The notes below the pieces were generated by a model. The model saw nothing but the letters and a program-made list of their open reading frames with translations. It made no database searches and was not told where the DNA came from. Shown here piece after piece: positions 18,919 to 51,207 of a stretch of DNA of 64,000 nt. The DNA is from a virus (lineage: Duplodnaviria > Caudoviricetes). Positions within the stretch are counted from its first letter, which is position 1; each line of letters opens with the position of its first letter. The position numbers were made by a program, and so were the translations under genes. The stretch lies in the IMG/VR virus record IMGVR_UViG_3300027892_004026, positions 1,869-65,868 of that record; one strand, 5' to 3'.

Positions 18919-18947
18919 AACCTAATTTTTTTTATTATACTATAGAT

Positions 18948-21099: not shown

Positions 21100-21100
21100 T

Positions 21101-23755: not shown

Positions 23756-23756
23756 A

Positions 23757-24167: not shown

Positions 24168-24177
24168 AAAATATCTT

Positions 24178-24921: not shown

Positions 24922-24959
24922 ATGAGAAAAAAATAGAATTTATGAATGAAAAAAAATGG
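24912..24959 (+). repeat. Imperfect 24-bp tandem duplication across the PhyH stop / RmlC start
   Basis: gaatttatgaatgagaaaaaaata followed by gaatttatgaatgaaaaaaaatgg, giving EFMNEKKI/EFMNEKKW and two possible ATGs (24918, 24942). Confidence 0.7.
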
Positions 24960-25490
24960 AACGATTTTGACGTAAGACCATCTAAAATTTTTGGATACGA
25001 AGTTCCTGTGTATACTCCATCTATATTCAGAGAATTTAGAGGTGAGATTTTTACAACCTATCATTCTGAAGACCATCCTGTGATGAGTAAAATTCACTAC
25101 GATAAAAATGAACTTGCAATTCATGGAAGATTCTCAAAATCATACAAAGGAGTTTTAAGAGGTTTACATTACGATGATAAAACATGGAAACTAGTACAAG
25201 CGTTAGTTGGTGACATATATTTAGTTGTATTGGACATAAGAGAGAATTCACTTAATTATGGAAAATGGGATTGGTTTTTAATTTCAGAAAAAAATAGAGA
25301 CCAAGTTTTAGTTCCTCCAGGTTTTGCAAACGGACACTACGCATTAACTGATTGTGTGTTTCATTACAATATGTTTTATAAAGGAGAGTATGTCGATTCA
25401 ATAAATCACGGAGTGGCAAAATGGAACGACCCAAAATGGAATATAGAGTGGCCGTCAAATAACCCAATACTTCAAATGAAAGACAAATGA
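24918..25490 (+). CDS. rmlC: dTDP-4-dehydrorhamnose 3,5-epimerase-like cupin
   Basis: FRGE, SYKGVLRGLHY, KLVQALVGDIYLVVLDIR, YGKW and VPPGFANG. Confidence 0.85.
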   Translation: MNEKKIEFMNEKKWNDFDVRPSKIFGYEVPVYTPSIFREFRGEIFTTYHSEDHPVMSKIHYDKNELAIHGRFSKSYKGVLRGLHYDDKTWKLVQALVGDIYLVVLDIRENSLNYGKWDWFLISEKNRDQVLVPPGFANGHYALTDCVFHYNMFYKGEYVDSINHGVAKWNDPKWNIEWPSNNPILQMKDK

Positions 25491-26119
25491 TTAAAAATTT
25501 AGAACAATATCCAATAGTTAGAGAACAAAAATTGACTTCACAAGATTTAATAAATTTTGAAGATTTAATTGTTAGTCATTGGGAAGGAGGTAAAATTAGG
25601 GGGCCAGTACATTTATCAAATGGTAATGAAGAAGAGTTGATAGAAATCTCTAAAAGAATAGGTCCATCTGATTGGGTTTTTTCTACGTGGAGATCACATT
25701 ATCATGCTTTAGTGAAAGGTATTTGTCCCATTTGGTTAGAAGACCAAATTTTAAAAGGTAAATCGATTACAATTTGTAATCCAAAAGATAAGTTTTACTC
25801 TTCGGCAATTGTTGGAGGAACACTATCAATCGCCTTAGGTGTTGCAATGAGTATCAAACAAAATGGTGGTGATGAAAAGGTGTGGGTATTTGTTGGTGAC
25901 ATGAGTTTTGAAAGTGGAATATTTTATGAAATACATAAGTATGCGAGAAACTTTGATTTACCACTTTATTTTGTGGTGGAAGATAACGGAGTTTCGACCT
26001 ACACTCCAACAGAGGCAACATGGAATAACATAAAAAAAGATATACCGAACGATGTAATTTGGTATCAATACAAATCCAAATACCCACATTACGGAACTGG
26101 TAAGTGGGTTGCGTTTTAA
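25487..26119 (+). CDS. TPP-dependent E1-alpha-like subunit (short)
   Basis: HLSNGNE, STWRSHYHAL, SAIVG and the TPP motif GDMSFESG...EDN. Confidence 0.85.
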   Translation: MIKNLEQYPIVREQKLTSQDLINFEDLIVSHWEGGKIRGPVHLSNGNEEELIEISKRIGPSDWVFSTWRSHYHALVKGICPIWLEDQILKGKSITICNPKDKFYSSAIVGGTLSIALGVAMSIKQNGGDEKVWVFVGDMSFESGIFYEIHKYARNFDLPLYFVVEDNGVSTYTPTEATWNNIKKDIPNDVIWYQYKSKYPHYGTGKWVAF

Positions 26120-26129
26120 ATTAAAGAAT

Positions 26130-27866
26130 ATGACATATAAAGAAATACTTTCTCAAATTATGACCGATTTATCTAACGATGATAATACCGTTTTTATTGG
26201 TCAACAGATAGTTTACAGGGGAAATCCGATGAGTACGACACTTGATGATGTCCCCAAAGAAAAGATGATTGAAGTACCGGTAATGGAAGAAACTCAAATG
26301 GGGATGAGTTTGGGTTTAGCGATGACGGGTAAAAGAGTTATTACATTTTACCCAAGATGGGACTTTTTAATATCCGCATCCAATCAATTAGTAAACCATG
26401 TGGACAAATATGAATTGATGACAGGTGAAAAAGTCCACATCATAATTAGGGTCGGTAAAGGGTCTGAGACACCATTAGATCCAGGGCATCAACATAAAGC
26501 AAATTATATAGAAGAATTTAAATCTTTGTGTAAACATACTAAAATTTTTGATTGTAAAACTATCGAGGAATTAAAATTACATTATCAATTTGCAAAAGAT
26601 AATGTTGGTGTGTATATTATAAATGAGTATCCAGAATTGTATCATAATAAAACAGTTTTAAATCTCATATCCGATGAATCGAATGAAAGTACTAACACAC
26701 TTATGATTGAAGATTTTATGGGAGATGGATGGTATGACATTGAAAATTATAAAATATGTGAAATTACTGAAATATCAGAAAGAAAAGATGAAAATTTTTA
26801 CCATTTGGTACATGTAAACTATTATTTATCTCTATATAGTTTAGAACATAAAGATTTACCAATCTCAGAAGAAATTAAAATTTTACTAAAGAAAAATCAA
26901 AACTTCAAAGTTATTTTTATAACAGAGCATGAATGTGACCTGGAAAATGTTATAAAAATCACGGATTTCTTACTTAGAATTATTGAAATACCGGCAAACC
27001 AAGTTTTTATTATAAATGGTAATCAGTTGTTACCACAATTAAAAAACGAGATAAATTCTAAAATAAATGTTCATGTGTCAAACAGACTTCCATTGGTGAT
27101 TACAAGAAATATTGTGAATTTGTGTGATGGATATCCGTTTAAAATCAATAAAGAAAAAACGTTTACGTGTTATAATAGGAATCTAACTATGCATAGATTA
27201 GGTATTTTAACGGCACTTAAACATCATAATTTATTAGATGATACCGATTGGTCTTTTCTAAGAGGAAATAGATTGTCCGCAATGAAATTAGAAAATGGTG
27301 ATATCGATTCTAATATTTTATTGACCGTATTTGACCAAGATTTAATTAATGAAACACAAAGTAGTTTAAACTTTTTTAAAAATATTGATATTAAAAAAAG
27401 TGAGTTTGAGGATTATGACGTGGATACCCCTGGTGGAGGTCAAGATTGGAATTCAATGTTTGAAAATAATCCATATAAACATTCATACATCAATATTGTC
27501 AATGAGTCTCAGTTTGAAAAAAATAATTTAATTCATATTACTGAGAAGACATTTATTCCTTTTTATTATTCACAGTTTCCATTAATTGTTGCTACTTATC
27601 AACACATTAAAAAAACAAAAGAACTCTATGGATTCGATTTTTTTGAAGATTTTTTTGATTTAAGTTATGATAATGAACCAAATCCACAAAAAAGAATGAG
27701 AATGATTATTGATGAAATTGTTAGAGTTAGTAAGAAAAAAAACCAATTACAGGGATTTTATCAAATCTCAAAAAAAAGGTTCAAACACAATAAAGATATA
27801 GTTACAAGTTTATATGATGATAAAACAGACCATAACTTTTTTCAAAGTTTAATAAATTTTCAGTAA
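26130..27866 (+). CDS. E1-beta/transketolase pyrimidine-binding domain fused to GT10-like domain
   Basis: FIGQ, PVMEETQMGMSLGLA, DQLVN-like SNQLVNH and GHQH in the N-terminal ~175 aa. C-terminal CYNRNLTMHR...INIVNES...ITEKTFIPF. ATG 26130 is preferred. Confidence 0.8.
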   Translation: MTYKEILSQIMTDLSNDDNTVFIGQQIVYRGNPMSTTLDDVPKEKMIEVPVMEETQMGMSLGLAMTGKRVITFYPRWDFLISASNQLVNHVDKYELMTGEKVHIIIRVGKGSETPLDPGHQHKANYIEEFKSLCKHTKIFDCKTIEELKLHYQFAKDNVGVYIINEYPELYHNKTVLNLISDESNESTNTLMIEDFMGDGWYDIENYKICEITEISERKDENFYHLVHVNYYLSLYSLEHKDLPISEEIKILLKKNQNFKVIFITEHECDLENVIKITDFLLRIIEIPANQVFIINGNQLLPQLKNEINSKINVHVSNRLPLVITRNIVNLCDGYPFKINKEKTFTCYNRNLTMHRLGILTALKHHNLLDDTDWSFLRGNRLSAMKLENGDIDSNILLTVFDQDLINETQSSLNFFKNIDIKKSEFEDYDVDTPGGGQDWNSMFENNPYKHSYINIVNESQFEKNNLIHITEKTFIPFYYSQFPLIVATYQHIKKTKELYGFDFFEDFFDLSYDNEPNPQKRMRMIIDEIVRVSKKKNQLQGFYQISKKRFKHNKDIVTSLYDDKTDHNFFQSLINFQ

Positions 27867-29533
27867 TGTACATACTCGGAATTTCATCGTTTTATCACGA
27901 TTCTTCAGCATGTTTATTCAAAGACGGAGAATTAGTGTTTGCTTGTGAAGAGGAAAAATTTACGGGAATTAAACACGATAGTTCTTTTCCAATTAATACA
28001 ATAGAATATATCTTCAGTCATTATAACATTACCCATAAGGATATTGATATGGTTTGTTATTATGAAAATCTTAATCTGAAATTGAAAAGAGTCTTAAATA
28101 ATATTAAGAAAAACTTTGTTACATCACCAAAATATTCTTTGAAGTCTTTGGTTAAAATCTTAAAAAATATTTCAGACGTAAATAAACATTTGAAACCGTT
28201 TAAGGAAAGAGTATTTTATTCTGAACACCATTTGGCTCATCAGTATTATTCATTTTTCACTTCCGATTTTGAAAAGGCAATCTGTTTGTCTATTGATGGT
28301 GTTGGAGAAATTGATACCTTATCTATTGGTTTAGCGGATGATGATGGAATTGAATATCATGATTTAGGGAAATATCCTCATTCATTGGGACTTTATTATT
28401 CTACAATGACTTCGTATTTGGGATTTAAACCAAATGAGGGAGAGTACAAACTAATGGGATTGGCATCATACGGAGACCCTCAAGAGCATATTGAAAAAGT
28501 TAGAAGTTTGATTGAATTCAAAGATGGAGAATTAATCTGTAATATGAATGTTTTTTGTTGGGATAGGTCGGAAAGAGTAATGTTCAATGAAAAACTAATT
28601 GAACATTTAGGTATTTCACCAAGGTTGACGGAAGAAGAAATTACTATAACTCATCAAAATTTAGCGGCATCAGTTCAACTAAGATACGAAGAAGTTTTAT
28701 TTGATATTATCAAAAGTTTGAAAAATCTTGGTAGTAATAATCTTTGCTTAGGAGGTGGTTCGGCATACAATGGTACTGCGAATGGAAAGATAGTTTCTAA
28801 TTCTGACTTTGATAAAATTTGGATACCAGTTGCTCCATCTGATGCTGGATCCTGTGTTGGAGCTTGTATTCATTACCTTATACAAAATAAAAAATTAGCC
28901 AAGAGAGTTACTAAGAATCCTTTTTTAGGACCAAAGTACGATGTTGAATTTTATTTGAGTCATATTAAAAATTTGAATTTTTTTGAAATTCACGATTACA
29001 ATAGATTAATAAAATACGTTGCAACAAAAATTCATGAAGGTAAAGTAGTTGGATGGTATAGAGATAGAATTGAATTTGGAGCAAGAGCATTAGGACATAG
29101 GTCTATTTTAGCTGACCCTACAGTTCCGAATATGAAATCGAGAATTAATAAGTTGATTAAGAAAAGAGAGGGCTTTCGTCCTTTTGCACCTATGGTCATT
29201 AAAGAAAAACAAAATGAATTTTTTCATACGATTGATGATGTACCATATATGAATCAAATTGTTAAAGTAAGGGAAGAATTTGCGGATAAATTATCTGCGG
29301 TTGTTCACGTGGATGGAACCTCAAGAATTCAAACTGTGTATGAGAACACTGTTATTCACGATTTATTAATTGAATTCGAAAAACTAAGTGGATTTCCCAT
29401 TATACTGAATACATCGTTTAACATTAAAGATAAAACAATGGTACTAACTCCGTTTGATGCGATAGAAACTTTCAAGGATACTGATTTAGACTTGCTAGTT
29501 TTAGATAATTATATAATACACAAAATACTATGA
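27866..29533 (+). CDS. Carbamoyltransferase (NodU/CmcH/TobZ family)
   Basis: GISSFYHDSSA, EHHLAH, GEYKLMGLASYG, SDAG, EFGARALGHRS, KREGFRPFAP, HVDGTSRIQTV and LNTSFN. Confidence 0.92.
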   Translation: MYILGISSFYHDSSACLFKDGELVFACEEEKFTGIKHDSSFPINTIEYIFSHYNITHKDIDMVCYYENLNLKLKRVLNNIKKNFVTSPKYSLKSLVKILKNISDVNKHLKPFKERVFYSEHHLAHQYYSFFTSDFEKAICLSIDGVGEIDTLSIGLADDDGIEYHDLGKYPHSLGLYYSTMTSYLGFKPNEGEYKLMGLASYGDPQEHIEKVRSLIEFKDGELICNMNVFCWDRSERVMFNEKLIEHLGISPRLTEEEITITHQNLAASVQLRYEEVLFDIIKSLKNLGSNNLCLGGGSAYNGTANGKIVSNSDFDKIWIPVAPSDAGSCVGACIHYLIQNKKLAKRVTKNPFLGPKYDVEFYLSHIKNLNFFEIHDYNRLIKYVATKIHEGKVVGWYRDRIEFGARALGHRSILADPTVPNMKSRINKLIKKREGFRPFAPMVIKEKQNEFFHTIDDVPYMNQIVKVREEFADKLSAVVHVDGTSRIQTVYENTVIHDLLIEFEKLSGFPIILNTSFNIKDKTMVLTPFDAIETFKDTDLDLLVLDNYIIHKIL

Positions 29534-29646
29534 AAAAAATTATTGATTGGTTCCTTAAAAAAATTAAAGAACGCAAAAGAAAAAAAGAGTTAAAAAAGAA
29601 AATTGAAGAATTAAGGAAAAGAGACCCATTTATTTATAATCATTGA
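29530..29646 (+). CDS. Small basic 38-aa protein (KRDPFIY tail), absent from the ORF track
   Basis: An ATGA overlap with the carbamoyltransferase stop. It translates MKKIIDWFLKKIKERKRKKELKKKIEELRKRDPFIYNH and fills the gap exactly. Confidence 0.65.
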   Translation: MKKIIDWFLKKIKERKRKKELKKKIEELRKRDPFIYNH

Positions 29647-29660
29647 ATCAACAATTTTGA

Positions 29661-30962
29661 ATGAGTTTATTTAATAAATTACGAATAAATTTGGGATACG
29701 ACTCAATGGATTTGAATAATAACCCAATTCCTAATCTCTATAATTTAGATATTACTTCAAACCCAAAGTTAAAAAAAATGACAGTAGATACACTGTTGGA
29801 TAATACGTATGGCAATTTTGTTTCAACAACTGTCGATTTTTTTTTCGAAAAGGGGGAAAATTTTATTTATCCTATAGTATTGTTTGAAAGTTTATTATTC
29901 ACTGAGACCAATACTATCGAACTATCACAAAAAATTGTTGATTCAATAAGAAAAAACAAAGTTAAAATAGTCATATTTTATTTGACTGAGGGATTTTATG
30001 GGCATTGGGATTGTGAATATATTTGGATTAATAATTTAGTTGAAAAATATCAAATTCAGAAAAATCAATTTATTGTCGTAACTTCAAATTTATTAGCGGA
30101 TGAAAAAAAGGTTGATAAAAATTTTATAATATATCCATATCCATTTTTTTTAAACCATATTTCTTTTTTTTGTAAAATTCAAAAGTTTCACCCTTCAACG
30201 GAAGTTTATTTTAACGACCACCGTGATTTTTTATCTGATAATATTGAAAAAAACAAAGATTATCATTTTTTGTGTTTCAATGGCATTCCAAAGTTACATA
30301 GGTTACTTGTGTTCTCGGAGTTTCTAACAAAACCTGAATATAAAGATAAATTTATTTTGACTATGGGAAAAACAAAAGGTAACATAGAAAAAAATTTTTA
30401 TGAAATAGTTAAAAATGGAACTCAAGGATATATTTTGGAAAACAAGAATACAATATTAGATTTTTTTGAAAAATATGATTCTCGGAATGAAAGAACTTAC
30501 GATAGGATTAACTTGTCACAAAATGGTAGGTTAAATGGAGGGACCATCAATGTGAAAGCTCACAAAAAATGTTTTGTAAATGTTGTTACCGAAACTTTAT
30601 GGGACACTGATAATTGTGTTTTTTTCACAGAAAAAACTTTGAAACCAATATATACTTGTCAACCGTTCATAATAGTTGGTAATCCATATACCTTAAAAAA
30701 ATTAAAAAACTATGGGTTTCAAACATTTTCACGATGGTGGGACGAAAGTTATGATGAAGAGACTGATGAATATAGAAGAATTGAAAAAATATTCAAAGTT
30801 ATGAGAGATATTTCAACTTGGGATAAAGATAAGTGTAGAGAAACTTTGGTTGAAATGAATGAAATACTCAAACACAACTTTAGAATTTTGTTTACTACTA
30901 CAGAATTGAAGAAGTTGTACTCATTGTTAAAAACACATGATGATAGTGTCAAAATAATTTGA
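29661..30962 (+). CDS. GT10-like putative glycosyltransferase (paralog family)
   Basis: CFNGIPKLHR...FVNVVTET...FTEKTLKPI...QPFIIVG. Confidence 0.5.
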   Translation: MSLFNKLRINLGYDSMDLNNNPIPNLYNLDITSNPKLKKMTVDTLLDNTYGNFVSTTVDFFFEKGENFIYPIVLFESLLFTETNTIELSQKIVDSIRKNKVKIVIFYLTEGFYGHWDCEYIWINNLVEKYQIQKNQFIVVTSNLLADEKKVDKNFIIYPYPFFLNHISFFCKIQKFHPSTEVYFNDHRDFLSDNIEKNKDYHFLCFNGIPKLHRLLVFSEFLTKPEYKDKFILTMGKTKGNIEKNFYEIVKNGTQGYILENKNTILDFFEKYDSRNERTYDRINLSQNGRLNGGTINVKAHKKCFVNVVTETLWDTDNCVFFTEKTLKPIYTCQPFIIVGNPYTLKKLKNYGFQTFSRWWDESYDEETDEYRRIEKIFKVMRDISTWDKDKCRETLVEMNEILKHNFRILFTTTELKKLYSLLKTHDDSVKII

Positions 30963-31007
30963 TTTTTATTCAAAAAATAATTATATTATAACTCATTGTT
31001 CCATTAT

Positions 31008-31508
31008 ATGATAATTCAAAAAATTTTATTTTCGAAGGAAGAGTGTGATGATATAATCAATATACACAAAGTTAATTCACAAAAATGGAAAAATTATGAC
31101 CGAGAGTATAAATCGTTTTCTATAATTTTGAATGGAGAGACCGAATGGATATTTTCTAAAATGAAAAACTTCTTTGAAAAAGAAAGTGGATTAAAGATTG
31201 AAACTATCAAGAATGAAGTTCATTTTCACGTGTTTAAAACTAATGATTGGTTTGGTGTACATAATGATGCTAGGAATAATAGATTGTTTTCACTAGGAGT
31301 TTTGTTGAACGATGATTTTGATGGGGGAGAATTTAAATTGTATCTTCAAGGGGAAGAAATTGTTTTAGAAAAAAAAGTTGGTAATACATATATTTTTGAC
31401 GCAGCAATTTCACATGAAGTAACGCCAATCCAATATGGGATTCGTTATTCCCTAATATGGTTTATTCAAAATAATAATGTAAAAACTAAACCAACAAAAT
31501 TTATATAA
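31008..31508 (+). CDS. 2OG-Fe(II) oxygenase (prolyl-hydroxylase-like)
   Basis: HND...LNDDFDGGEF...HEV...RYSL. Confidence 0.85.
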   Translation: MIIQKILFSKEECDDIINIHKVNSQKWKNYDREYKSFSIILNGETEWIFSKMKNFFEKESGLKIETIKNEVHFHVFKTNDWFGVHNDARNNRLFSLGVLLNDDFDGGEFKLYLQGEEIVLEKKVGNTYIFDAAISHEVTPIQYGIRYSLIWFIQNNNVKTKPTKFI

Positions 31509-31510
31509 AT

Positions 31511-32068
31511 ATGATTATTACCATATTATGTGAGCCAAGAAGTGGTTCAACTAATTTAATTAATTGGTTTTATCATAATAAAAATTTTAGTATTTTATTT
31601 ACACCTAGTGATCCTAAATCAAAATGGTATAAAGTAGGATCTCCAAAAAATTATAAATATAATACTCGATATTTTTTGATAAAAGAAGATTATTATCACT
31701 ACAAAAATTTTGATGAATTAGTTTCCATATCAGATAAGATAATATTACTTTACAGAGAAAATACGGAGGAACAGATAGAATCTTGGATAAATGCAATAAC
31801 AACAAAAAATTGGGATAAGCCATGGGTTTCAAAAAATATAAAAAATATTAATGAAACTCAATTTTTTATTGAATTAAAAAATAGTTTCAAAAAAGAATAT
31901 TTAGATAAAGAATATTTTAAAATATCGTATGAAGAATTATATTGTCGAAATGGGTTTCAAAAAATATTAGATTACTTGGGTATAAATGAGTTAGAAAATA
32001 AAGATTTTCCATACGGACAAAAATATAGGGTAGATGCCAACAAACCAAAAATAAAAAAATTAATTTAA
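31511..32068 (+). CDS. Sulfotransferase family protein
   Basis: N-terminal PAPS-binding loop PRSGST, LYREN...ES, and ISYEEL. Confidence 0.75.
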   Translation: MIITILCEPRSGSTNLINWFYHNKNFSILFTPSDPKSKWYKVGSPKNYKYNTRYFLIKEDYYHYKNFDELVSISDKIILLYRENTEEQIESWINAITTKNWDKPWVSKNIKNINETQFFIELKNSFKKEYLDKEYFKISYEELYCRNGFQKILDYLGINELENKDFPYGQKYRVDANKPKIKKLI

Positions 32069-32074
32069 TTTATT

Positions 32075-32695
32075 ATGATTTATCAAGAGGTTATTTTTAC
32101 TAAAAAAGAATGTGAAACAATTATGAATCTTAGAAATAATCATAAATTATTTTTTGTCACACCTGAATCGTCTCTCATCAAAAACACCCGTACAGTATAT
32201 CATAAAGAAAAAAATTTTAATGGTGTTGGATACGACAATTCAAAAGATTGGGTCAAAAGGTACAACGTTTGGGATATACCAATTAATAAAGAAACTTTTT
32301 GGTTTTATGATAGAATTTACAAATGGTTTTCAGAATTGACTAATATTCAAATTGACAGGGAAAAATATTTTAATCGCAGTGATGCCGCTCACAAAATTCA
32401 TGAGTACAATATAGGAGACAAATTTGATTTACATGCCGATCAAAATGATGGAAGTATTGATAGAATTTGGAATTTGGGTATTCAATTAAACTCCAATTAC
32501 GAAGGAGGCGATTATATTTGTTATGACAAAAATAATCACCCGATTAATATTTCTAAAGAAACAGGTAACACAATAGCGTATTCCTCTGATGTGTTACATG
32601 AAATAAATGAAATTTTACAAGGAAAAAGATATTCTTTAGTTGTCAAAATCTACTCATGGGAATTATACACCAAAAAAAACAAAAGTTTTATTTAA
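32075..32695 (+). CDS. 2OG-Fe(II) oxygenase
   Basis: FDLHAD...LNSNYEGGD...HEI...RYSL. Confidence 0.85.
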   Translation: MIYQEVIFTKKECETIMNLRNNHKLFFVTPESSLIKNTRTVYHKEKNFNGVGYDNSKDWVKRYNVWDIPINKETFWFYDRIYKWFSELTNIQIDREKYFNRSDAAHKIHEYNIGDKFDLHADQNDGSIDRIWNLGIQLNSNYEGGDYICYDKNNHPINISKETGNTIAYSSDVLHEINEILQGKRYSLVVKIYSWELYTKKNKSFI

Positions 32696-33268
32696 ATGAT
32701 TTATCAAAAAAAAATTTTCTCAAAAAAAGAATGTGATTTAATTATAGATTATGCGAACCGTTATAAAGATATTTCTATAAATCCTAAAACTTTTGAACTT
32801 CACGAAAAAAATAGGATAGTAAGTCCATCTAATTTTTTTATGCAGTATTATGTGTTTGGAATACCAATGAATGATTCCACCTTTTGGGTTTATAGTAGAT
32901 TATTTAAATGGTTCGAATTGGTGACAAGTGAAAAAATGTCGAACAATTTTGGTTCATTCATTTCAACTTTACATTGTTACAAAGAAAATGATGGATTTGG
33001 AAGACACATAGATTTGACGGAAGGATTTGAAGATAGGAGGTATAATATTGGAATTCAACTTAATGAAAATTATAGTGGTGGGGACTACATATGTTGGGAC
33101 GAAGACAAAAATGAAATATTGATATCAAAAAAAGTTGGTACATCACTTTGTTATCATGCTAAAATTGAACACGAAATAAAAATGGTGACAGGTGGTGAAA
33201 GATGGTCTTTGGTTGTACCAATAACTAAGAGAATGATAGTCAATCAGAATAAACCTAAAATTTTATAA
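32696..33268 (+). CDS. 2OG-Fe(II) oxygenase
   Basis: FGRHID...LNENYSGGD...HEI...RWSL. Confidence 0.85.
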   Translation: MIYQKKIFSKKECDLIIDYANRYKDISINPKTFELHEKNRIVSPSNFFMQYYVFGIPMNDSTFWVYSRLFKWFELVTSEKMSNNFGSFISTLHCYKENDGFGRHIDLTEGFEDRRYNIGIQLNENYSGGDYICWDEDKNEILISKKVGTSLCYHAKIEHEIKMVTGGERWSLVVPITKRMIVNQNKPKIL

Positions 33269-33345
33269 TTTAGTAAATAAAAAACCTACCATGACAAATC
33301 AATCATTTTATTATAATATGTTAAAGTTAGAAATAGTAAGAAAAT

Positions 33346-33834
33346 ATGAATGAAATCAAGAAAGAATATAATTTTTTAAATCAGTCAGAAATAAAATATT
33401 TAATTACTTTATCTGAAAATTTTGTAGTACACCAATTTGATTTGTATCATCAGACTGATGTTGATAAAGGTAATTTACAAACATATTTCAACACAATTAC
33501 TAAATATATATCAGAAAATTTTGTGGGAGAGTATCAGCTCAAAGCCATAGAAATGAACAGAGTTACTGAATCAGACATTATGGATGGGTATCACCAAGAT
33601 GATTGTGATTTAACATTTGTTACTTATTTTGAAATAAATTTTGAAGGTGGTGAATTTGAATATTTAGATGAAAAAAACTCAAATCTGATTGAACCTGAGG
33701 CTAATTTGACATTAATCATGGATAAAAATCTATTACATAGAATTAGACGAGTAAAAAAAGGTGAAAGATTTTCATTAGTTTCTTTTTTTATTTTAAAACC
33801 ATCAGTTCAAAAAAAAATTAAAACTTTTATTTAA
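33346..33834 (+). CDS. 2OG-Fe(II) oxygenase
   Basis: YHQD...FEGGEF...LHRI...GERFSL. Confidence 0.8.
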   Translation: MNEIKKEYNFLNQSEIKYLITLSENFVVHQFDLYHQTDVDKGNLQTYFNTITKYISENFVGEYQLKAIEMNRVTESDIMDGYHQDDCDLTFVTYFEINFEGGEFEYLDEKNSNLIEPEANLTLIMDKNLLHRIRRVKKGERFSLVSFFILKPSVQKKIKTFI

Positions 33835-33846
33835 AAAAACAATAAT

Positions 33847-34392
33847 ATGAACAAGGTAATCTTTGAAAATACATACGGGTATAAAGATTTTATTACCGAA
33901 GAAGAAAGACTTTTTTTAGAGGAGTGGGCCATCAATAATAACTCTTATCTTAAAAGAAACGGTAAAGGACCTTATCGTAATTTTGGTAGATTGGACAGTT
34001 TATCTGACATCCCGCCACTAATAAAGGAATTAAAAACCAAACTAATAGAATTAGAATCTATTGAAAAAGTAATCGAAGCTCCAAAAAATGCTGATTGGTT
34101 AGGTATACAAAAGGAAACCGCGTTTGTTGAGCCTCATATGGATTACAATGGTCCGGATGATAGATATTACACTAGAAGATATAACATATTAATATCTTTA
34201 CCCGAAGAAGGGGGACAACCTATATATGGGAATAAAGTATTAAATGTCAAAGAGAGGATGATTTGGAGATGTGATGCTGGATTAGTAATCCACTCAAGTA
34301 TACCAAACAAAGGTAAAAAACCAAGAATAAACCTATCTTTTGGGTTCTTAATGCCAAAATCAGGTAACTCATTCGAAACTAAATTAATGTGA
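33847..34392 (+). CDS. 2OG-Fe(II) oxygenase
   Basis: PHMD...PEEGGQP...HSS...RINLSFG. Confidence 0.75.
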   Translation: MNKVIFENTYGYKDFITEEERLFLEEWAINNNSYLKRNGKGPYRNFGRLDSLSDIPPLIKELKTKLIELESIEKVIEAPKNADWLGIQKETAFVEPHMDYNGPDDRYYTRRYNILISLPEEGGQPIYGNKVLNVKERMIWRCDAGLVIHSSIPNKGKKPRINLSFGFLMPKSGNSFETKLM

Positions 34393-34537
34393 CGAACCCA
34401 CACCAATCAAATAAAGTATTATATTTGCATAAAACAAAACAAGAATATGAAAGGTGCATTAATTATAAAAAATTAGATAATATTCTGAGTTATTAGATTT
34501 CTCAAATTCTCTAAAATTAAACAAACAAACTTTATAA

Positions 34538-35164
34538 ATGAAAATTTTACTTTTATACACACCTAGAAGTGGGTCTACTTCTATAATGAGATATTTTGAA
34601 AAACTGAAGCCCGAATATCAAATTTTCAACCAACCATGGTCCTCGTGGAAAGGTACTAAAAATTATCGGTTGAATGATTTTTTAGGGATGGATAAACTTT
34701 TTGTAAAAAATACGATAGATTGGGTTATGGATAATAAAGAAGATAGTGGAAAAATGAAATCTAATTCTATTCCAACAATTCAAGAGATTTTTAATTTTTT
34801 TGATAAGGTTTTGGTCTTATCGAGAAAAGATATAACTCAACAAAGTATAAGTTTGTATTTTTCATCCGAAAATAACTCTTACTTGGAAACATATGACCGA
34901 CTTTATAATATAGAATCTATAGATGAAACAAGATTAAATGAAATAAAATCCAATCTTACAAAGGATAATGATTTGGTAAATGAATTGGTGAATCTTGGTG
35001 TTAGTCATTATTATTATGAAGACTTGTATTATGAATCTTTCAATGACTTTTTTCAAACACTGAATTTAGACTATCATAATGAATATTTCGATAGATATTT
35101 GAATACCACAAAAAGATACAAAAAAGGGGAGGTGACAAATAAAGTTGTTAAAACATTTATTTAA
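34538..35164 (+). CDS. Sulfotransferase family protein
   Basis: YTPRSGST, LSRKD...QSIS and YYYEDL. Paralog of 31511..32068. Confidence 0.75.
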   Translation: MKILLLYTPRSGSTSIMRYFEKLKPEYQIFNQPWSSWKGTKNYRLNDFLGMDKLFVKNTIDWVMDNKEDSGKMKSNSIPTIQEIFNFFDKVLVLSRKDITQQSISLYFSSENNSYLETYDRLYNIESIDETRLNEIKSNLTKDNDLVNELVNLGVSHYYYEDLYYESFNDFFQTLNLDYHNEYFDRYLNTTKRYKKGEVTNKVVKTFI

Positions 35165-35174
35165 AAATTTTTAG

Positions 35175-35182
35175 TATTTATA
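35175..35182 (+). promoter_or_regulatory. TATTTATA candidate phage promoter element
   Basis: Intergenic, 28 nt upstream of ATG 35210. The same octamer precedes three other gene starts. Confidence 0.3.
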
Positions 35183-35209
35183 TTATAGTAATTTCAATTA
35201 TTAAAAATA

Positions 35210-35488
35210 ATGGATATAGACGTAAAAAAAATTGTTTCAGCATGGATGACATCATTTAGTCCTAATGATGATGAAAAAAAGTTGGCTGAGGATAGATATA
35301 ATATTTGTTCAACTTGTGACCGAAAAGAAAAAAATTTGTTAGGGATTGATGTTTGTAAGGAATGTGGATGCCCTCTGTCAAAAAAAATTTTTACGTTGAC
35401 AGATAGAGAAACTTGTCCCTTAAAAAAATGGGATGATTTAGATAGTGAGTTTAGAAAAAATAAAAAACATAAGTATAACTTATTTTAA
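35210..35488 (+). CDS. Small Cys-rich Zn-binding protein (DUF6171-like)
   Basis: RYNICSTC...CKECGCPL..K.....CPLKKW. Confidence 0.65.
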   Translation: MDIDVKKIVSAWMTSFSPNDDEKKLAEDRYNICSTCDRKEKNLLGIDVCKECGCPLSKKIFTLTDRETCPLKKWDDLDSEFRKNKKHKYNLF

Positions 35489-35517
35489 ATAAATTAAATT
35501 AATTCGTAAAATAAAGT

Positions 35518-37050
35518 ATGAGAAGTGTATTAATAAGTTTAGATTTTATTTACAGGGAAGATGGCAGCTTGACTCCATTAGAGTTGAATACTGAAACGAA
35601 AGATGATATTGATATTTGGAATATTACAAATGATAACTTTATCGAAATAACATCACCTTTTTTCAGACATGAAGAACTAAATCAATATTTGCAGTCAAAT
35701 AACATTACAAAAATAGTTGTAATTGCAGGTAATGCTCACAGTAAATACATAAAAGCGTTCGCGGATTTTTATAATTATGAATATACTTTGGTTTCGGTTG
35801 GAAAAAACCAAGTGACAGTTCCTGAAGTCGAAGACTCAGATGATACGATTATAATAAGAATTGCTTATGATACTTATGCCTTGATTGATGATTTGTATGC
35901 GAGGGATAATTATGAGTTTCATAATCTAATTAAAAACGAATCGTTCGCAAGTCCTGTAACTTTCACTGAAAATAATTTTGATACAATTCTTAATTTTGAG
36001 GATTCCCAAGACGGAACAATACCAAATTATGTTTTGAAGGCAAGAACACCAGGATACGTCAAATCCGAATATCCTAAAATTTACAAATTTGATAATGTTT
36101 CTCAACTTGAAAACTTGAAGTCCAATTTAAAAAATAATGAATTTATTCAAAAGTTTGAATATAATGAAAATCTTTCACTGATAGACCAAAGAACACATCA
36201 TTTAAGGAGTATGAATTTGATATGTGGAGAAAATTTAGATGTTGTTAATTTCATAAATTACAAGTCAAGTAATCTTGTTTCTATTGATAATACAAAATTA
36301 ATTAAAGACTATGAAATTAATGAAAATAATAGATTACACCCATTAAATGAATGTAAATATTATCCAACTTACTTGTCCAAGTATGGATTCAGATACCATT
36401 TCGATAATGAAGACAAAGTTTTAATGTGGGACAACAGTCTTAAACTTATTCAAGATGTAAACATAGGGGATATTTTTAAAGGAGTAAAATTTCCTCAGGG
36501 GCATGAAATTTTTCCTAATGACCCTGAATATGTAAATTTAAACGATATTGAAAATTTTGAATTGGAGGAGACAAAAGTAGTAAGTATTCAAGGGGGACAA
36601 CAGGGTATTTTTGCCAATATTACAGCATCGAATGAAGAATATGGTACTCTTTCTTGGTTTGACGGTATAAGTAATTTATATTTAGTATCTGGCGGAGATG
36701 TTCCAAATGGATTTGCTTTTTATCAAAAAGGGGGAGAGTTAGAGATTGGACAAAGGATATATGTCTATAACAAAAGTTCAAATACTATGATAGATTTTAT
36801 CGTTGAAGATTTATATTTTGATTTGAAAGATTTAACTTGTTATATCCTTTCTTTGTATAAAACACCTGAATTTTTAATTCAACTCGAACAAAATCATGAT
36901 CTTTACTTGGTACAACACAATAGTTGTAATGCTTATGGTTGTTACTATAATAGATATCCAGGTAGATGCACTGGTACATGTGATGATTGTGGAAAAGGTT
37001 CTCCCCTTTGTAATAATTGTGGGGGAGATGCTGGAGTACTGTGTTATTAA
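35518..37050 (+). CDS. Circularly permuted ATP-grasp-like domain + Hint domain + Cys-rich C-terminal peptide
   Basis: N-terminal DFIYREDGSLTPLELNT (D..ExN), later YVLKARTPG and FIQKF. Hint block A-like FDNEDKVLMWDNSLKLIQDVNIGD, block F-like CYILSL and terminal LVQHN|S, then 42 aa with 8 Cys. Confidence 0.65.
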   Translation: MRSVLISLDFIYREDGSLTPLELNTETKDDIDIWNITNDNFIEITSPFFRHEELNQYLQSNNITKIVVIAGNAHSKYIKAFADFYNYEYTLVSVGKNQVTVPEVEDSDDTIIIRIAYDTYALIDDLYARDNYEFHNLIKNESFASPVTFTENNFDTILNFEDSQDGTIPNYVLKARTPGYVKSEYPKIYKFDNVSQLENLKSNLKNNEFIQKFEYNENLSLIDQRTHHLRSMNLICGENLDVVNFINYKSSNLVSIDNTKLIKDYEINENNRLHPLNECKYYPTYLSKYGFRYHFDNEDKVLMWDNSLKLIQDVNIGDIFKGVKFPQGHEIFPNDPEYVNLNDIENFELEETKVVSIQGGQQGIFANITASNEEYGTLSWFDGISNLYLVSGGDVPNGFAFYQKGGELEIGQRIYVYNKSSNTMIDFIVEDLYFDLKDLTCYILSLYKTPEFLIQLEQNHDLYLVQHNSCNAYGCYYNRYPGRCTGTCDDCGKGSPLCNNCGGDAGVLCY

Positions 37051-37072
37051 TTATGAATTTAAAAATAAAAAA

Positions 37073-37189
37073 ATGGAAACTAATAAAATAATCAAACCAA
37101 AAACATTACCAGTTACAGATTCACAAAGGGAATCTATGAATATTATCACAAATAAAATAATTCAATTAATTAAGGATAAACATTTGTGA
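37073..37189 (+). CDS. Small 38-aa helical protein
   Basis: A-rich start context (aaaataaaaaaATG). It translates METNKIIKPKTLPVTDSQRESMNIITNKIIQLIKDKHL and fills the gap. It is the true end of the track's 36896..37189 ORF. Confidence 0.6.
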   Translation: METNKIIKPKTLPVTDSQRESMNIITNKIIQLIKDKHL

Positions 37190-37219
37190 TTCGCATAATA
37201 ATCAAATTGAGTTAGTTTT

Positions 37220-37759
37220 ATGGAAAAAATTTTTATTTCAGAAAATTTTTTATCTAAAAACGAGTGTGATAATATTCTAAAAACAATTTTTGATAAAACT
37301 ACCTTGGAAGTTGCTCGAATCGGGTCACAAGGAGGTCATATCCATACGCAATTAAGAAAGTCATCAACCTCATTCATCACGGAATTAGGAGACTTAAATC
37401 AAAAACTAGTTAGGGTACTTTCAGATAAAGTAAAAGTTAAAGGTGGTAATCCGACTAATCTGTCAGACTTTCAACTCACAAAGTATGATGTTGGGGACTA
37501 TTTTAATTGGCACATTGATCCTCCACACAGAGATTATACAATAATTATTTTTTTGAACAATGATTATCAAGGAGGAGAATTGGAAATTAAAGATGAGAAC
37601 GAAAAAGTTTTTAGAATAGAAAAAAAAGAAGGAAAACTTGTTGTATTCCCTTCTTTCCTTTTTCATCGTGTCACCAAAATTGAAAAAGGAATAAGATATT
37701 CATTAGTGAATTGGGTAGCTATTGAAAAAACACTGAATTATAAAAAAACTTTGATTTAG
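37220..37759 (+). CDS. 2OG-Fe(II) oxygenase (prolyl-hydroxylase-like)
   Basis: FNWHID...LNNDYQGGEL...FPSFLFHRV...GIRYSLVNW. Confidence 0.88.
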   Translation: MEKIFISENFLSKNECDNILKTIFDKTTLEVARIGSQGGHIHTQLRKSSTSFITELGDLNQKLVRVLSDKVKVKGGNPTNLSDFQLTKYDVGDYFNWHIDPPHRDYTIIIFLNNDYQGGELEIKDENEKVFRIEKKEGKLVVFPSFLFHRVTKIEKGIRYSLVNWVAIEKTLNYKKTLI

Positions 37760-37777
37760 TTAAATTAGACTCAAACT

Positions 37778-38599
37778 ATGAATGTTTTAAAATTTTGGAA
37801 TACTGATTCGTTCGAAATTTCTAGTTATAGATACGGAATATCCGAAAGAAAAAATTCTACGTATACAACATCTGGTACAGACACAACAGGAAAATGTTTG
37901 TATCAATACAATGAATTAGGATTTAGAGGAGACTCTATGTATAAACAAGGTTTTAAAATTCTATCAATAGGAGATTCCAACACTGAAGGAGTAGGATTGA
38001 ATAACAATGATACATGGTCATCGAGGTTTTCGAATTTTTTTAGTAATGGAGTAAATATGAATTTTGGTACGGGAGGAAGAAGTAATGATTTTATCGCTAG
38101 ATGTTTGTTAACATATTTCGATTTGATTAAACCTGATTTAGTTTTGGTCATGTACACCTCTCCTCAACGCAGAGAAGTATATACGAAATATAATACAATA
38201 GAGCCTTTTATGCCAACCGCTTCTTGGGGGTATACTAAAGAAACTGAGGAGGGGCAGCATATTCAGAAAAATCTGATAGAAATACAAAATGATGGTGAAG
38301 ATTTTGTAAATTGGTATAAAAATCATCTTTTGATTAAATATTTTTTACAATCAAAAAATTGTAATTGGTTGTGGAACGGATGGATGTTAAATTATGAAGG
38401 GTATGATGAGTTCAATCGTTATGATGGTGACTATGGTAAATTTTTAGATTATGCGGTTGATGGAACTCATCCAGGTATTCTTCATAATAGATTGTACTCA
38501 AAAAATTTGGTTAACCACATCAAATTAAATTTTTTAGATTATATTCCCATAAATAATTTTAAAGAAGATGCGAATGATGTTCACACTAAACTCTTTTAA
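37778..38599 (+). CDS. SGNH/GDSL-like protein
   Basis: YNELGFRG leader, IGDSNT, NFGTGGRSN and DGTHPG. Paralog of 9873..10727. Confidence 0.7.
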   Translation: MNVLKFWNTDSFEISSYRYGISERKNSTYTTSGTDTTGKCLYQYNELGFRGDSMYKQGFKILSIGDSNTEGVGLNNNDTWSSRFSNFFSNGVNMNFGTGGRSNDFIARCLLTYFDLIKPDLVLVMYTSPQRREVYTKYNTIEPFMPTASWGYTKETEEGQHIQKNLIEIQNDGEDFVNWYKNHLLIKYFLQSKNCNWLWNGWMLNYEGYDEFNRYDGDYGKFLDYAVDGTHPGILHNRLYSKNLVNHIKLNFLDYIPINNFKEDANDVHTKLF

Positions 38600-38626: not shown

Positions 38627-40918
38627 TCATTGTAATAAATTTTGTATTTTGTTCATAACCATTTCTGATGTAATAGATTTTTGACAGATATGTTGTCTCT
38701 CAGTTCCTTTGTAAACTGGACACCAATCCCAATCACCAGAGTCAAATGTTAAAACAGGATCATTCCAACATTTAATACAAACATTATTTGAAACTCTTGT
38801 CATGTTATATGAAAACTCGTGATTGTTTTCACTAAATCCTGCAATCATAACTGTTTTTTTACCTAGTGCCCAATTCATCCAAGATAATCCTGAACTTAAT
38901 CCTACGAAGAAATCTGCATGGAATAGAATATTCATAACTTCAGGCCAATCTTTATCATGATTATGTATGACACCATCAATATTATATTTCTTTAACGATA
39001 AAATCACAACTTCATATCCTAACTCTTTTAACCTTTTTGAAAGAGTAGCCCAATTTTCAAAAACCCATTCTTTACAACCAGCAGTTGATTGAGGGCCAAA
39101 AACAACATATTTCTTTTTTATTGGTCTTGCTTTAGGTGTGAAGTTTAAAGTATAATTCATCTCTTTATAGTTTAAACCTAAAATATCCGTTGCGGTTTGT
39201 TGTAGTGGAATTAAATTGATTTGAGTTGGGTAATTGTCAAACTTTCTCCAAGTTTGGTCATCATCTTTAAACCAACCTAATCTATAAACCACATCACAAT
39301 TAACTGACTTACCAGGTTTTATGAATGAAATGTCTTTATAGTCATTTGAACCTTCAAACCATTCATTATGGAATGTACTTAAAATGACCTTACATTTTTT
39401 CTGATTCATTAATTCAATAGCGTATGGAGCCCATGCTAATGTATCACCGACGGCTTTTGTTTCAAAAGAAATTAGAACAGTTTTATTTTCCAAAGTAAAT
39501 CTATCGACAATTTCCCCGTTAATTTTTATAATCCAAGGGATGTAATATTTTTTGGAACTGGCAGTCCACATGTTATTGGTAATGGTTTGAGAATGAATTA
39601 CTTGATTGTTATCACCATTAATGAATTCAACAAAGTATTCTTTTTTGTCATCACCTAAAACTTCAACTCTTGGGCCATCTAAGTAATTGATAATAACTCT
39701 ATTTTCTTTTATTGGTCTATCTAACCAAGGTTTTCTTTCTAAGAAATCATTGACTGTTTCTAGCCCTATTTCAGCAATGCGTTCCCAATTAAACTCTTGT
39801 CTAATCTGTTCTGATTCTACTAATGATAATGTTTTATATTTTTCATAATCACCATAAACCGAAAACATCTTTTCACCCAAATCATTAAAATCAGGTTCAT
39901 AATAATTTCCAACATTATCGTTGAAATGGTTGTATGTACTGGCACTTACTGGTAATTCGTGTGATATCTTAACAGGAATACCTTTACCTTGTGCGAATTC
40001 TAATTGGCCTGAACAATCTGAATAGATTGACGGTGTACCGCAAGCCATTGCTTCAATAAGAGGTAAATTCCAACCCTCAGCTCTTGCACAAGACACAAAC
40101 ACACTACAAGACTTTAATAATCTAATGTATTCTTCTCTTGGTGGAAAATGGAGAATTTTAATTCTATCATCCTCCAACCCATAATGTTTTAATCTTTCCT
40201 CAGTTGATTTTAAACCATCATTTGAGAATGGGTTATCAACAGAAACAATTAGTTCAACAGGTTCGTTTTTATCAAATGTTTTTACGAAGGTTTCAATGAC
40301 TTCCTTAATTGACTTTCGATAATCCCACCTTCCCGCTAAAAAGAATGTAAACTTATCTTTCGTTAATGGGTGAGTAACTTCTTTATCAGGAAAGAAAGTA
40401 TTCACATCGACACCTTCAGGTACCACTTTAATTTTATTTGGGTCATAACCTTGGGCAATGGTACAATCTCTTTGCCATTTTGACGGAACCCACATCTCAT
40501 CAAATTCTTTTAACTTATTAAAGTATTCTTGTGGTTGTAAGGTTGACTCCCATACATTGTAGGCAATTTTTGGGCCATCGTAGTTATCATAAAAAATGTG
40601 ATGATTTGTTTCGCATAATACAATATTAACATCAGGTTCAAATTCTTTAGATACATCAGGGTATAAAGAGAAGTCACTTCTTGTTTTATCTGAGTTCCAA
40701 AGGATTTGTTTGTATAATAATTTTTTATCAATTTCATTAAAATAATGTTCATTATCATGAGCATTTTCATTATATCCCTCCCAAGAGTCACCAACGGTAA
40801 AGTTTCTAACTTTAATATCCGCGTGTTTATCTAAATGTCTAAAAAAATCTCTTGTATGTTGATTATATCCTGTGTTACCAACGTAAGAACCGTGGGCGTA
40901 AATTTTAGGTCTGATCAT
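38627..40918 (-). CDS. GT4 glycosyltransferase fused to TibC/Aah-like autotransporter O-heptosyltransferase domain
   Basis: GT4 signature AEGWNLPLIE (Ex7E). C-terminal AVGDTLAW, GLSSGLSW and a four-Cys set CIKCWND...WCP...ICQK. Confidence 0.8.
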   Translation of the reverse strand: MIRPKIYAHGSYVGNTGYNQHTRDFFRHLDKHADIKVRNFTVGDSWEGYNENAHDNEHYFNEIDKKLLYKQILWNSDKTRSDFSLYPDVSKEFEPDVNIVLCETNHHIFYDNYDGPKIAYNVWESTLQPQEYFNKLKEFDEMWVPSKWQRDCTIAQGYDPNKIKVVPEGVDVNTFFPDKEVTHPLTKDKFTFFLAGRWDYRKSIKEVIETFVKTFDKNEPVELIVSVDNPFSNDGLKSTEERLKHYGLEDDRIKILHFPPREEYIRLLKSCSVFVSCARAEGWNLPLIEAMACGTPSIYSDCSGQLEFAQGKGIPVKISHELPVSASTYNHFNDNVGNYYEPDFNDLGEKMFSVYGDYEKYKTLSLVESEQIRQEFNWERIAEIGLETVNDFLERKPWLDRPIKENRVIINYLDGPRVEVLGDDKKEYFVEFINGDNNQVIHSQTITNNMWTASSKKYYIPWIIKINGEIVDRFTLENKTVLISFETKAVGDTLAWAPYAIELMNQKKCKVILSTFHNEWFEGSNDYKDISFIKPGKSVNCDVVYRLGWFKDDDQTWRKFDNYPTQINLIPLQQTATDILGLNYKEMNYTLNFTPKARPIKKKYVVFGPQSTAGCKEWVFENWATLSKRLKELGYEVVILSLKKYNIDGVIHNHDKDWPEVMNILFHADFFVGLSSGLSWMNWALGKKTVMIAGFSENNHEFSYNMTRVSNNVCIKCWNDPVLTFDSGDWDWCPVYKGTERQHICQKSITSEMVMNKIQNLLQ

Positions 40919-51000: not shown

Positions 51001-51207
51001 ATAAGTATTTTTGACGCTTGTTCGGACGCTATTATCAATCCGAAAACATTATATTCAAATTGTGAGACGATTAATGTTGGATGTGTATTATATACAGATT
51101 CAACTTTACAGAATGTAGTTAGTGAAATATATGTATACCATCAAGGAGCCAATTGGGACCTTAATGGATCTGGTGGAGTAATCGGATTATCATCAACACA
51201 ATGTTAA
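48088..51207 (+). CDS. Thr/Pro-repeat (mucin-like) putative virion protein with Cys-rich modules
   Basis: Long TPT(N/Q/E) tracts separate several ~60-70 aa modules with paired Cys. Confidence 0.65.
49021..49140 (+). repeat. 30-bp coding tandem repeat x4 ([10 protein letters not shown])
   Basis: ac(t/c)gcaacacagactcaaactcc(taca/aact)aat repeated in frame, with a 60-bp higher-order period. Confidence 0.9.

Follow-up and report, generated by a model that had tools for sequence, protein, structure and literature searches.

A conserved gene block around an ATP-grasp/Hint fusion gene in uncultured T4-like freshwater phages points to an undescribed peptide-maturation system

Introduction

Hint-mediated release of variable C-terminal modules and fusions of an enzyme with its own precursor are both known kinds of protein organization. 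Here we describe a phage locus that resembles both, a block of genes at 31.0-38.6 kb of a 64-kb stretch of DNA (hereafter the window, meaning the whole stretch analysed) taken from the 65.9-kb IMG/VR virus record IMGVR_UViG_3300027892_004026. The central gene of the block encodes a predicted ATP-grasp domain, a Hint domain and a Cys-rich tail in a single chain. Around it lie genes for five clear and one probable 2-oxoglutarate- and Fe(II)-dependent (2OG-Fe(II)) oxygenases, two sulfotransferase-like proteins, an SGNH/GDSL hydrolase-like protein and a small zinc-ribbon-like protein. An earlier note, made from the letters of the window, had proposed that this array modifies a peptide released by the Hint domain.

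For the releasing part, the closest described systems are the Hint domains of bacterial intein-like (BIL) proteins and polymorphic toxins, in which a hypervariable C-terminal module likewise follows immediately on a Hint fold with a conserved terminal Asn, and splicing is not expected. The phage protein differs from these in having an ATP-grasp domain at its N-terminus instead of a secretion or trafficking domain, in carrying a Cys-rich peptide of 26-56 residues rather than an enzyme toxin, and in occurring in phages only. Compared with polymorphic toxins, no immunity gene was recognised at the locus, and the neighbours are enzymes. Inteins share the Hint fold and the terminal His-Asn, but they require Cys, Ser or Thr at positions 1 and +1, and the phage protein does not conform to this pattern.

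Peptide pathways offer a second set of comparisons. Borosins (OphMA-type) also hold a catalytic domain and a C-terminal presumed core peptide in one chain, but the phage protein has an ATP-grasp domain rather than a methyltransferase, a release step built in through Hint rather than left to a separate protease, and many accompanying enzymes. Graspetides (microviridin-type) likewise link an ATP-grasp ligase to a ribosomal peptide; here, in contrast, there is no conserved core motif of Thr, Ser or Lys with Asp or Glu, and the ATP-grasp domain appears permuted, resembles GS, GspS and TTL rather than MdnB/C, and is fused to the peptide. By analogy only, conotoxin- and cyclotide-type peptides also combine a conserved pro-region with a hypervariable product and an even number of Cys, and the enzyme classes near the phage gene would make hydroxy-Pro and sulfo-Tyr. 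There is no homology to these peptides, however, and the putative producer here is a bacteriophage.

Tandem arrays of 2OG-Fe(II) dioxygenases have been published for the T4-like cyanophages Syn9 and S-RSM4 (Iyer et al. 2010, PMC2938197). These arrays belong to the same oxygenase superfamily and are also in tandem, with at most 33% identity to the window genes, but the arrays of cultured cyanophages have no Hint gene, zinc-ribbon partner or C-terminal tag of the kind described below. Such a tag recalls encapsulin cargo-loading peptides and other short targeting tags, where one short C-terminal peptide is likewise shared by unrelated folds; the tag here is only ~4-6 residues long, and no shell gene was recognised in the block. 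In the literature we found no description of an ATP-grasp/Hint/Cys-peptide fusion in phages, of an obligate zinc-ribbon partner, or of a tag shared by the enzymes of a whole module.

A fusion protein with a predicted self-released tail

The 510-residue protein encoded by the central gene (35518-37050) had no match in Pfam, PHROG or NCBIfam and none in the PDB by sequence or profile. Its parts, assigned mainly from structure models and conserved columns, are as follows:

35518..36387, + strand: putative circularly permuted ATP-grasp domain, residues 1 to ~290 (Foldseek matches to YjfC, YgiC and glutathione synthetase; invariant columns; ESM Atlas).
36397..36921, + strand: Hint domain, residues 294-468 (Z 15-16.4; His at intein position 1; ends in His467-Asn468).
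36922..37047, + strand: hypervariable Cys-rich tail of 42 residues, residues 469-510 (predicted local distance difference test score, pLDDT, below 50; 8 Cys; predicted released peptide).

The AlphaFold2 model of the fusion protein, built from 32 homologues, had a pLDDT of 81.8, with the last 40 residues disordered. That the gene joins an ATP-grasp domain to a Hint domain, as the earlier note had claimed, is borne out by this model. Residues 294-468 superpose on inteins, BIL domains and hedgehog Hint domains with Z 15-16.4 and a root-mean-square deviation of ~2.1 Å (Foldseek E 2e-7). The N-terminal part resembles YjfC (7uk6, E 2.5e-5), YgiC and glutathione synthetases, with Foldseek E values of 2.5e-5 to 1e-4 over ~300-370 columns and modest template-modelling scores for the full-length model, and its leads in the ESM Atlas were ATP-grasp_3, TTL and YheCD.

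Conserved residues of the N-terminal part suggest an enzyme. All 32 aligned sequences, some as low as 28% in identity, share D9, E22 and N24, in the arrangement D9-x12-E22-x-N24, as well as K174 and R230. We take the D-x12-E-x-N spacing to equal that of the Mg ligands D257, E270 and N272 of E. coli DdlB, with ligand roles assigned from the likeness in spacing and motif. Because this Mg-ligand spacing is present but stands at the N-terminus, the domain fits a circularly permuted, putatively active ATP-grasp enzyme.

The Hint domain lacks the residues used in splicing. In the column of intein position 1 (model residue 294), the 32 sequences have His (28), Lys (3) or Glu (1) and never Cys, Ser or Thr, and the +1 residue after the terminal Asn is variable across 170 relatives (Ala in 59, Gly in 22, Phe in 21, Ser or Thr in only 23). 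The terminal His-Asn is found in 170 of 174 sequences; in the three exceptions of full length the Asn persists within Q-N-N or Q-V-N, and H467 and N468 are invariant in the 32-sequence alignment. Since there is no nucleophile at position 1 or +1 and the terminal Asn is kept, the Hint domain would cut at its C-terminal end only. On sequence grounds, splicing and N-terminal cleavage are excluded, and C-terminal cleavage by Asn cyclisation could still take place. One related record, G008 (the 211-kb IMG/VR record of locus L106, labelled a provirus by IMG/VR), holds two copies of the fusion gene, at 27276-28793 and 65183-66634, ~38 kb apart.

The tail that follows the terminal Asn varies in sequence and is constant in its Cys content. 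Its 42 residues in the window include 8 Cys, 5 Tyr, 4 Asn and 3 Asp, in line with the composition that the earlier note had read from the translation. Across 170 relatives the sequence is hypervariable, with 8 Cys in 141 and an even number of Cys in 166, the typical count being six or eight. Free-ended forms are 26 to 56 residues long, and the median of all 170 is 43 residues. Beyond the Cys, the tail has one near-invariant Lys and no conserved acidic residue.

What lies behind the tail is informative about its fate. Around 118 relatives terminate just after it, and in ~52 a self-cleaving chaperone of the Peptidase_S74 type comes next, its Ser-x4-Lys cleavage motif standing right behind the last Cys; two relatives continue into a second Hint domain that starts with a canonical C-F-x-x-G-S. 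Wherever anything follows it, the tail is thus flanked by self-cutting elements on both sides, which argues for excision as a free peptide. From this arrangement, a Cys-rich peptide is very likely released from the fusion protein.

A constant partner and a conserved gene set

For co-occurrence, we retrieved 80 IMG/VR loci by alignment of the central protein and dereplicated them to 54. The most constant partner of the Hint gene is a zinc-ribbon protein, whose gene is its neighbour in all 80 loci, within ~3 kb and on the same strand. In the window this gene stands directly before the fusion gene:

35210..35488, + strand: zinc-ribbon-like protein of 92 residues (phrog_13558, E 2e-10; invariant C33, C36, C49, C52, C54 and C69; C-terminal end Y-N-L-F).

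Its structure model gave no fold match (Z at most 4.3). A reverse search via the zinc-ribbon protein recovered the central gene in 22 of 26 records; among the exceptions, one was cut at a contig end and two were fragments. A complete 173-kb phage (G019; locus L157, 9989-10222) has a 77-residue zinc-ribbon homologue and no Hint gene. This homologue stops before the position of the tag and has tail-fibre genes on one side, one of which has an S74-type end, and genes for the tail sheath on the other. Because an untagged homologue occurs among the tail genes of this phage, we consider the zinc-ribbon core older and wider than the module.

The enzyme genes also recur. Within 10 kb of the Hint gene, ~62 of the 80 loci had an oxygenase, ~35 a sulfotransferase of the window type and ~40 an SGNH gene, and the recurrent order was Hint, zinc-ribbon, oxygenases, sulfotransferase, oxygenase, SGNH. 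Frequent further neighbours in the 54 loci were a second sulfotransferase-like family, a radical SAM enzyme, a second SGNH family, adenosine-5'-phosphosulfate (APS) kinase and a cytidylyltransferase-like protein, as well as the carbamoyltransferase and GT10-like families that flank the block in the window. These data support the oxygenase, sulfotransferase and SGNH genes, together with the fusion gene, as a conserved unit across many uncultured phages. The association of array and Hint gene on which the earlier proposal depended is therefore seen in other phages as well, in all loci for the zinc-ribbon gene and in about 62 of 80 for oxygenases.

Enzymes around the fusion gene

The remaining genes of the block encode the following proteins, each given with the last four residues of its C-terminus:

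30996..31508, + strand: 2OG-Fe(II) oxygenase 1, P4H/PKHD-like (PF13640 E 9e-8; phrog_61; HxD/H/RxS aligned; start codon uncertain, TTG at 30996 or ATG at 31008); T-K-F-I.
31511..32068, + strand: sulfotransferase-like protein 1 with a P-R-S-G-S-T loop (Sulfotransfer_3 E 0.013; family invariants R10, G12, R82 and S91); K-K-L-I.
32075..32695, + strand: 2OG-Fe(II) oxygenase 2 (PF13640 E 1.7e-8; motifs aligned); K-S-F-I.
32696..33268, + strand: 2OG-Fe(II) oxygenase 3 (PF13640 E 8.6e-9; motifs aligned); P-K-I-L.
33346..33834, + strand: 2OG-Fe(II) oxygenase 4 (PF13640 E 5.7e-7; motifs aligned); K-T-F-I.
33847..34392, + strand: divergent, probable 2OG-Fe(II) oxygenase 5 (PF13640 E 0.094 only; phrog_13746, shared with oxygenase 6); T-K-L-M.
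34538..35164, + strand: sulfotransferase-like protein 2 with a P-R-S-G-S-T loop (no Pfam match; in the BLAST cluster of sulfotransferase-like protein 1 and in the 34-sequence alignment); K-T-F-I.
37220..37759, + strand: 2OG-Fe(II) oxygenase 6, nearest to PKHD/YbiX/PiuC (PF13640 E 6e-16; PKHD-type hydroxylases in the PDB, E 3e-5; NCBIfam); K-T-L-I.
37778..38599, + strand: SGNH/GDSL hydrolase-like protein (Lipase_GDSL_2 E 9e-4, below cut-off; GDS, GxSND and DxxH in the translation); T-K-L-F.

Six oxygenases with intact HxD...H...RxS motifs had been reported in the earlier note, and this count holds in full for five. Five of the six oxygenase open reading frames passed the PF13640 cut-off, and in those five the HxD, distal His and RxS align in register; the five are nearest to PKHD/YbiX/PiuC-type hydroxylases. 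The protein at 33847-34392 matched PF13640 only below threshold and aligned poorly, and its motifs (H-M-D, a later His and R-x-N-x-S) were found by eye, so that it is probably a divergent 2OG-Fe(II) oxygenase. An NCBIfam match to a cyclophane-peptide oxygenase was far under its cut-off (E 0.006) and was not used.

The two sulfotransferase-like proteins are homologous to each other, and neither passed a curated sulfotransferase model: the first scored 16.2 bits against a Sulfotransfer_3 cut-off of 27, and the second had no Pfam match. In an alignment of 34 family members, the invariant residues were the Arg and Gly of the P-R-x-G-S-T loop, K58, R82, S91, Y140 and E141. These columns fit the 5'-phosphosulfate-binding (5'-PSB) loop and the 3'-phosphate-binding (3'-PB) Arg...Ser motif of sulfotransferases that depend on 3'-phosphoadenosine-5'-phosphosulfate (PAPS), and they substantiate the two P-R-S-G-S-T sulfotransferases named in the earlier note as putative members of that class. 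At exactly these two motifs, the family profile has weak matches to NodH (E 0.026) and CurM (E 0.27), and the ESM Atlas neighbours of these proteins are annotated as Sulfotransfer_3 or Stf0. APS kinase (PF01583, E 5e-17) was present in 16 of the 54 related loci, which makes PAPS-dependent sulfation credible; none was found in the window.

The SGNH assignment likewise stands. Blocks I (GDS), III (G-x-S-N-D) and V (D-x-x-H) are readable in the translation, the Pfam match is below cut-off, and homologues in related loci are 61% identical.

A shared C-terminal tag

Proteins of the block share a short C-terminal pattern. By eye, the ten proteins other than the Hint protein all close with a basic residue followed by Thr, Ser or Lys and a pair of hydrophobic residues. 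A relaxed version of this pattern was matched by 8 of the 10 block genes and by none of the 38 genes elsewhere in the window (Fisher p 1.2e-7). The tagged proteins of the block span four unrelated folds, and the fusion protein itself is untagged. Across the 54 loci the consensus was K-[T/S]-L-I-COOH, and the tag was carried by 44 of 48 zinc-ribbon proteins, 73 of 100 oxygenases, 25 of 35 and 36 of 48 members of the two sulfotransferase families, and 17 of 24 radical SAM enzymes. It also occurred on SGNH proteins, on three unnamed families and on some GT10-like relatives (11/30). APS kinase, nucleotidyltransferase, carbamoyltransferase and Hsp20 genes of the same loci had no tag in any case, a division that would separate enzymes acting on a macromolecule from cofactor suppliers.

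We considered a cause at the DNA level and rejected it. The codons of the tag are diverse, with Ser encoded by both TCN and AGY, all three stop codons are used, and the distance to the next gene ranges from 0 to 170 bases. Because codons, stops and spacing all vary, selection appears to act on the protein rather than on the DNA.

The tag follows the module and not the protein family. In G002, a complete relative of 238 kb, an uninterrupted run of tagged genes surrounds the Hint gene, and two oxygenases encoded far from it lack the tag; the array of five oxygenases in the cultured cyanophage S-RSM4 is also untagged, and this phage has no Hint gene. The conclusion rests on these two cases together with the untagged zinc-ribbon homologue of the Hint-less phage. 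According to the earlier note, arrays occurring independently of the Hint gene would count against a link between the two; such arrays exist in cultured cyanophages where the oxygenases are untagged, but we found none that were tagged. At 94330-96937 of G002, ~20 kb off the main tagged block, two adjoining tagged genes (399 and 468 residues) may be satellite members.

Lineage, distribution and genomic setting

The record that contains the window is ~20% complete (CheckV). The content of guanine plus cytosine is 26-31% up to 48 kb, and nearly all genes of the window are on the + strand. Relatives with the central fusion gene reach lengths of 238-334 kb. A T4-type Gp23 major capsid protein is encoded in two long relatives and in two closer ones, whose central protein is 41-42% identical, and no capsid of nucleocytoplasmic large DNA viruses was found in the two long relatives checked. 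A giant-virus origin was rejected on these two observations, although some related contigs are named 'GVMAG'. The lineage is an uncultured, freshwater, T4-like large myophage, because its relatives have Gp23 and not the giant-virus capsid.

The stretch recurs in freshwater and lake metagenomes from many studies, dated 2017 to 2025. RNA libraries from four freshwater studies contained contigs identical to the block, including pieces that join the zinc-ribbon gene to Hint and Hint to oxygenase 6; these contigs indicate presence in RNA libraries only, as DNA carry-over is possible and uncovered bins are uninformative. IMG/VR held at least 122 Hint loci and at least 570 zinc-ribbon loci. Among 50,697 GenBank phage records, neither the block nor its fusion and zinc-ribbon proteins had any match in DNA or protein, and by this search the family is without a cultured representative. 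A pattern scan of 185,579 prokaryote genomes found no relative of the fusion protein.

The setting of the block is rich in glycan genes. The absence of nucleotide-sugar genes stated in the earlier note is correct within 31.0-38.6 kb, yet the flanks on both sides are dense in such genes, in glycosyltransferases and in a carbamoyltransferase. The sole large minus-strand gene (38627-40918) encodes a GT4 glycosyltransferase fused to a GT9/TibC-like domain (Pfam), and in related loci its homologues are a few kb away from the module. At 11681-30962 there are at least five copies of a paralogous family of ~400 residues without a Pfam match, two of them fused to an epimerase or transketolase-like domain; some relatives of this family bear the tag of the module. 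Three radical SAM proteins are encoded in the sugar region at 1965-9915. One of the three has a B12-binding domain, and the protein at 4818-6266, untagged in the window, is distant kin of the tagged radical SAM family of the relatives.

Between the fusion gene and oxygenase 6 is a gap of 170 bases with a small open reading frame of ~38 codons (37073-37189, start approximate). Related loci also have a gap of 100-500 bases 3' of the fusion gene, and one RNA-library contig covers the 37073-37189 region. No terminator-like sites were found in the block, a scan for promoters and terminators being uninformative in DNA this AT-rich.

Proposed mechanism and alternatives

The reading we favour, with belief and doubt about evenly matched, is that the block is one functional module around a self-processing precursor: tagged enzymes would dock, modify the tail, and leave the Hint domain to release the peptide. 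Through the tag, the zinc-ribbon protein and the three kinds of enzyme (oxygenases, sulfotransferases and SGNH hydrolase) would all gather on a single partner; the most likely candidate is the fusion protein, which is untagged and whose ATP-grasp class handles the C-terminal carboxylates of peptides. Docked enzymes could then hydroxylate the peptide at Pro, Asn, Asp or Lys, sulfate it with PAPS at Tyr or at the new hydroxyls, and acylate or deacylate it, before or around release. The five Tyr of the tail would allow direct Tyr sulfation. The Hint domain would cut solely at its C-terminal end via Asn cyclisation, freeing the 42-residue peptide, and the product would be a small, heavily modified, disulfide-rich peptide that leaves the cell at lysis. 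Alternatively, the ATP-grasp domain might ligate the conserved Lys or the new N-terminus to a carboxylate, either from the C-terminus of a tag or from the end of the peptide itself.

Several points weigh against this proposal. Asn cyclisation without the prior steps of splicing is usually slow. In about a quarter of the dereplicated loci, the 10 kb around the Hint gene contain no oxygenase, and the oxygenase array of one relative (G001) is ~20 kb away, so the enzyme set is variable. No site for hydroxylation or sulfation is conserved in the tail, where the Cys pattern and one Lys are the constant features. The module here also lies inside a very large glycan and glycoprotein region, which leaves sugars or fibres as possible substrates. 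The tag resembles other signals as well, among them class I PDZ ligands, encapsulin cargo peptides and the ClpX degron of MuA, in which basic residues are likewise followed by hydrophobic ones, and its reader may be something other than the fusion protein. Cleavage, docking on the ATP-grasp domain and modification of the tail by the neighbours are all steps that we infer from sequence.

A more specific form of the proposal, possible but doubtful in our view, is a tag-directed assembly line. The ATP-grasp domain of the precursor would itself read the tag, either by binding it or by activating its carboxylate for ligation to the conserved Lys or the new N-terminus; sets of oxygenases, sulfotransferases, radical SAM enzymes and esterases would be interchangeable in acting on the hypervariable peptide, and the product, released by the built-in Hint domain, would be a conotoxin-like hypermodified peptide that escapes at lysis. 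In ordinary pathways for peptides made on ribosomes and modified after translation (RiPPs), the enzymes recognise a leader peptide, whereas in such an assembly line the tag would sit on each tailoring enzyme.

The tagged enzymes could instead tailor another macromolecule, whether Thr/Pro-repeat fibres encoded at 48-61 kb or a glycan, with the fusion and zinc-ribbon proteins as accessories, for example as a ligase that attaches the Cys-rich peptide or some other group to this target. We think this unlikely, even though much of the setting favours it: the glycan genes, glycosyltransferases and carbamoyltransferase of the flanks, the GT4-GT9/TibC-like fusion next door, the tag on some GT10-like relatives, and four very large proteins at 48088-61194 (18-31% Thr, 8-14% Pro) whose long T-P-T-x repeats make them look like targets of mucin-type O-glycosylation. 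For bacterial operons that encode these enzyme classes, Iyer et al. 2010 (PMC2938197) have also proposed that collagen-like or tail-collar proteins are hydroxylated and then sulfated, which counts for such a substrate. However, Thr/Pro-repeat proteins were found neither in the complete G002 nor within 10 kb of the Hint gene in the 54 loci, so they cannot explain the conserved module. The earlier note's suggestion of the Pro-rich tracts as an alternative substrate is weakened to that extent; they are plausible as extra substrates in this particular phage. The fusion protein, moreover, is the sole universal untagged partner of the tagged set, and the carbamoyltransferase of the relatives is untagged.

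A role for the tag in sorting or turnover (capsid packaging, compartment loading or a protease/unfoldase degron) is improbable to a similar degree. The enzymes would then be auxiliary metabolic genes with metabolites or proteins of the host as substrates, and the peptide a separate effector that shares the island. Tandem dioxygenase arrays of unknown role are indeed well known in T4-like cyanophages without a Hint gene, the content of the island varies, and a basic patch followed by two C-terminal hydrophobic residues resembles known degrons and cargo peptides. Against this, the tag is absent from the cultured cyanophage arrays, from the distant oxygenases of G002 and from the zinc-ribbon homologue of the Hint-less phage. 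Its restriction to lineages and blocks with a Hint gene argues against a general sorting signal, and the untagged state of cofactor-supply enzymes in the same block is easier to reconcile with work on one shared macromolecule than with general sorting. T4-like phages gather accessory genes in variable islands, and the block could in principle be a chance cluster of unrelated genes in a hypervariable region; this is contradicted by the zinc-ribbon gene accompanying Hint in 80 of 80 loci, by the recurrent gene order, and by a protein-level tag (p ~1e-7 in the window) that is repeated in the 54 loci, and we give it hardly any credence.

Significance

The module points to an undescribed peptide-maturation system. 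The dioxygenase arrays of T4-like aquatic phages have been without an assigned substrate since their description (PMC2938197), and this lineage offers a candidate in the self-released Cys-rich peptide. The shared tag is also a simple handle for recognising the genes of one set. Should the peptide indeed be the product, these phages make heavily modified secreted peptides, which would be a new class of phage-encoded natural products, and a recruitment tag borne by the enzymes would, if real, be a new organising principle for peptide maturation.

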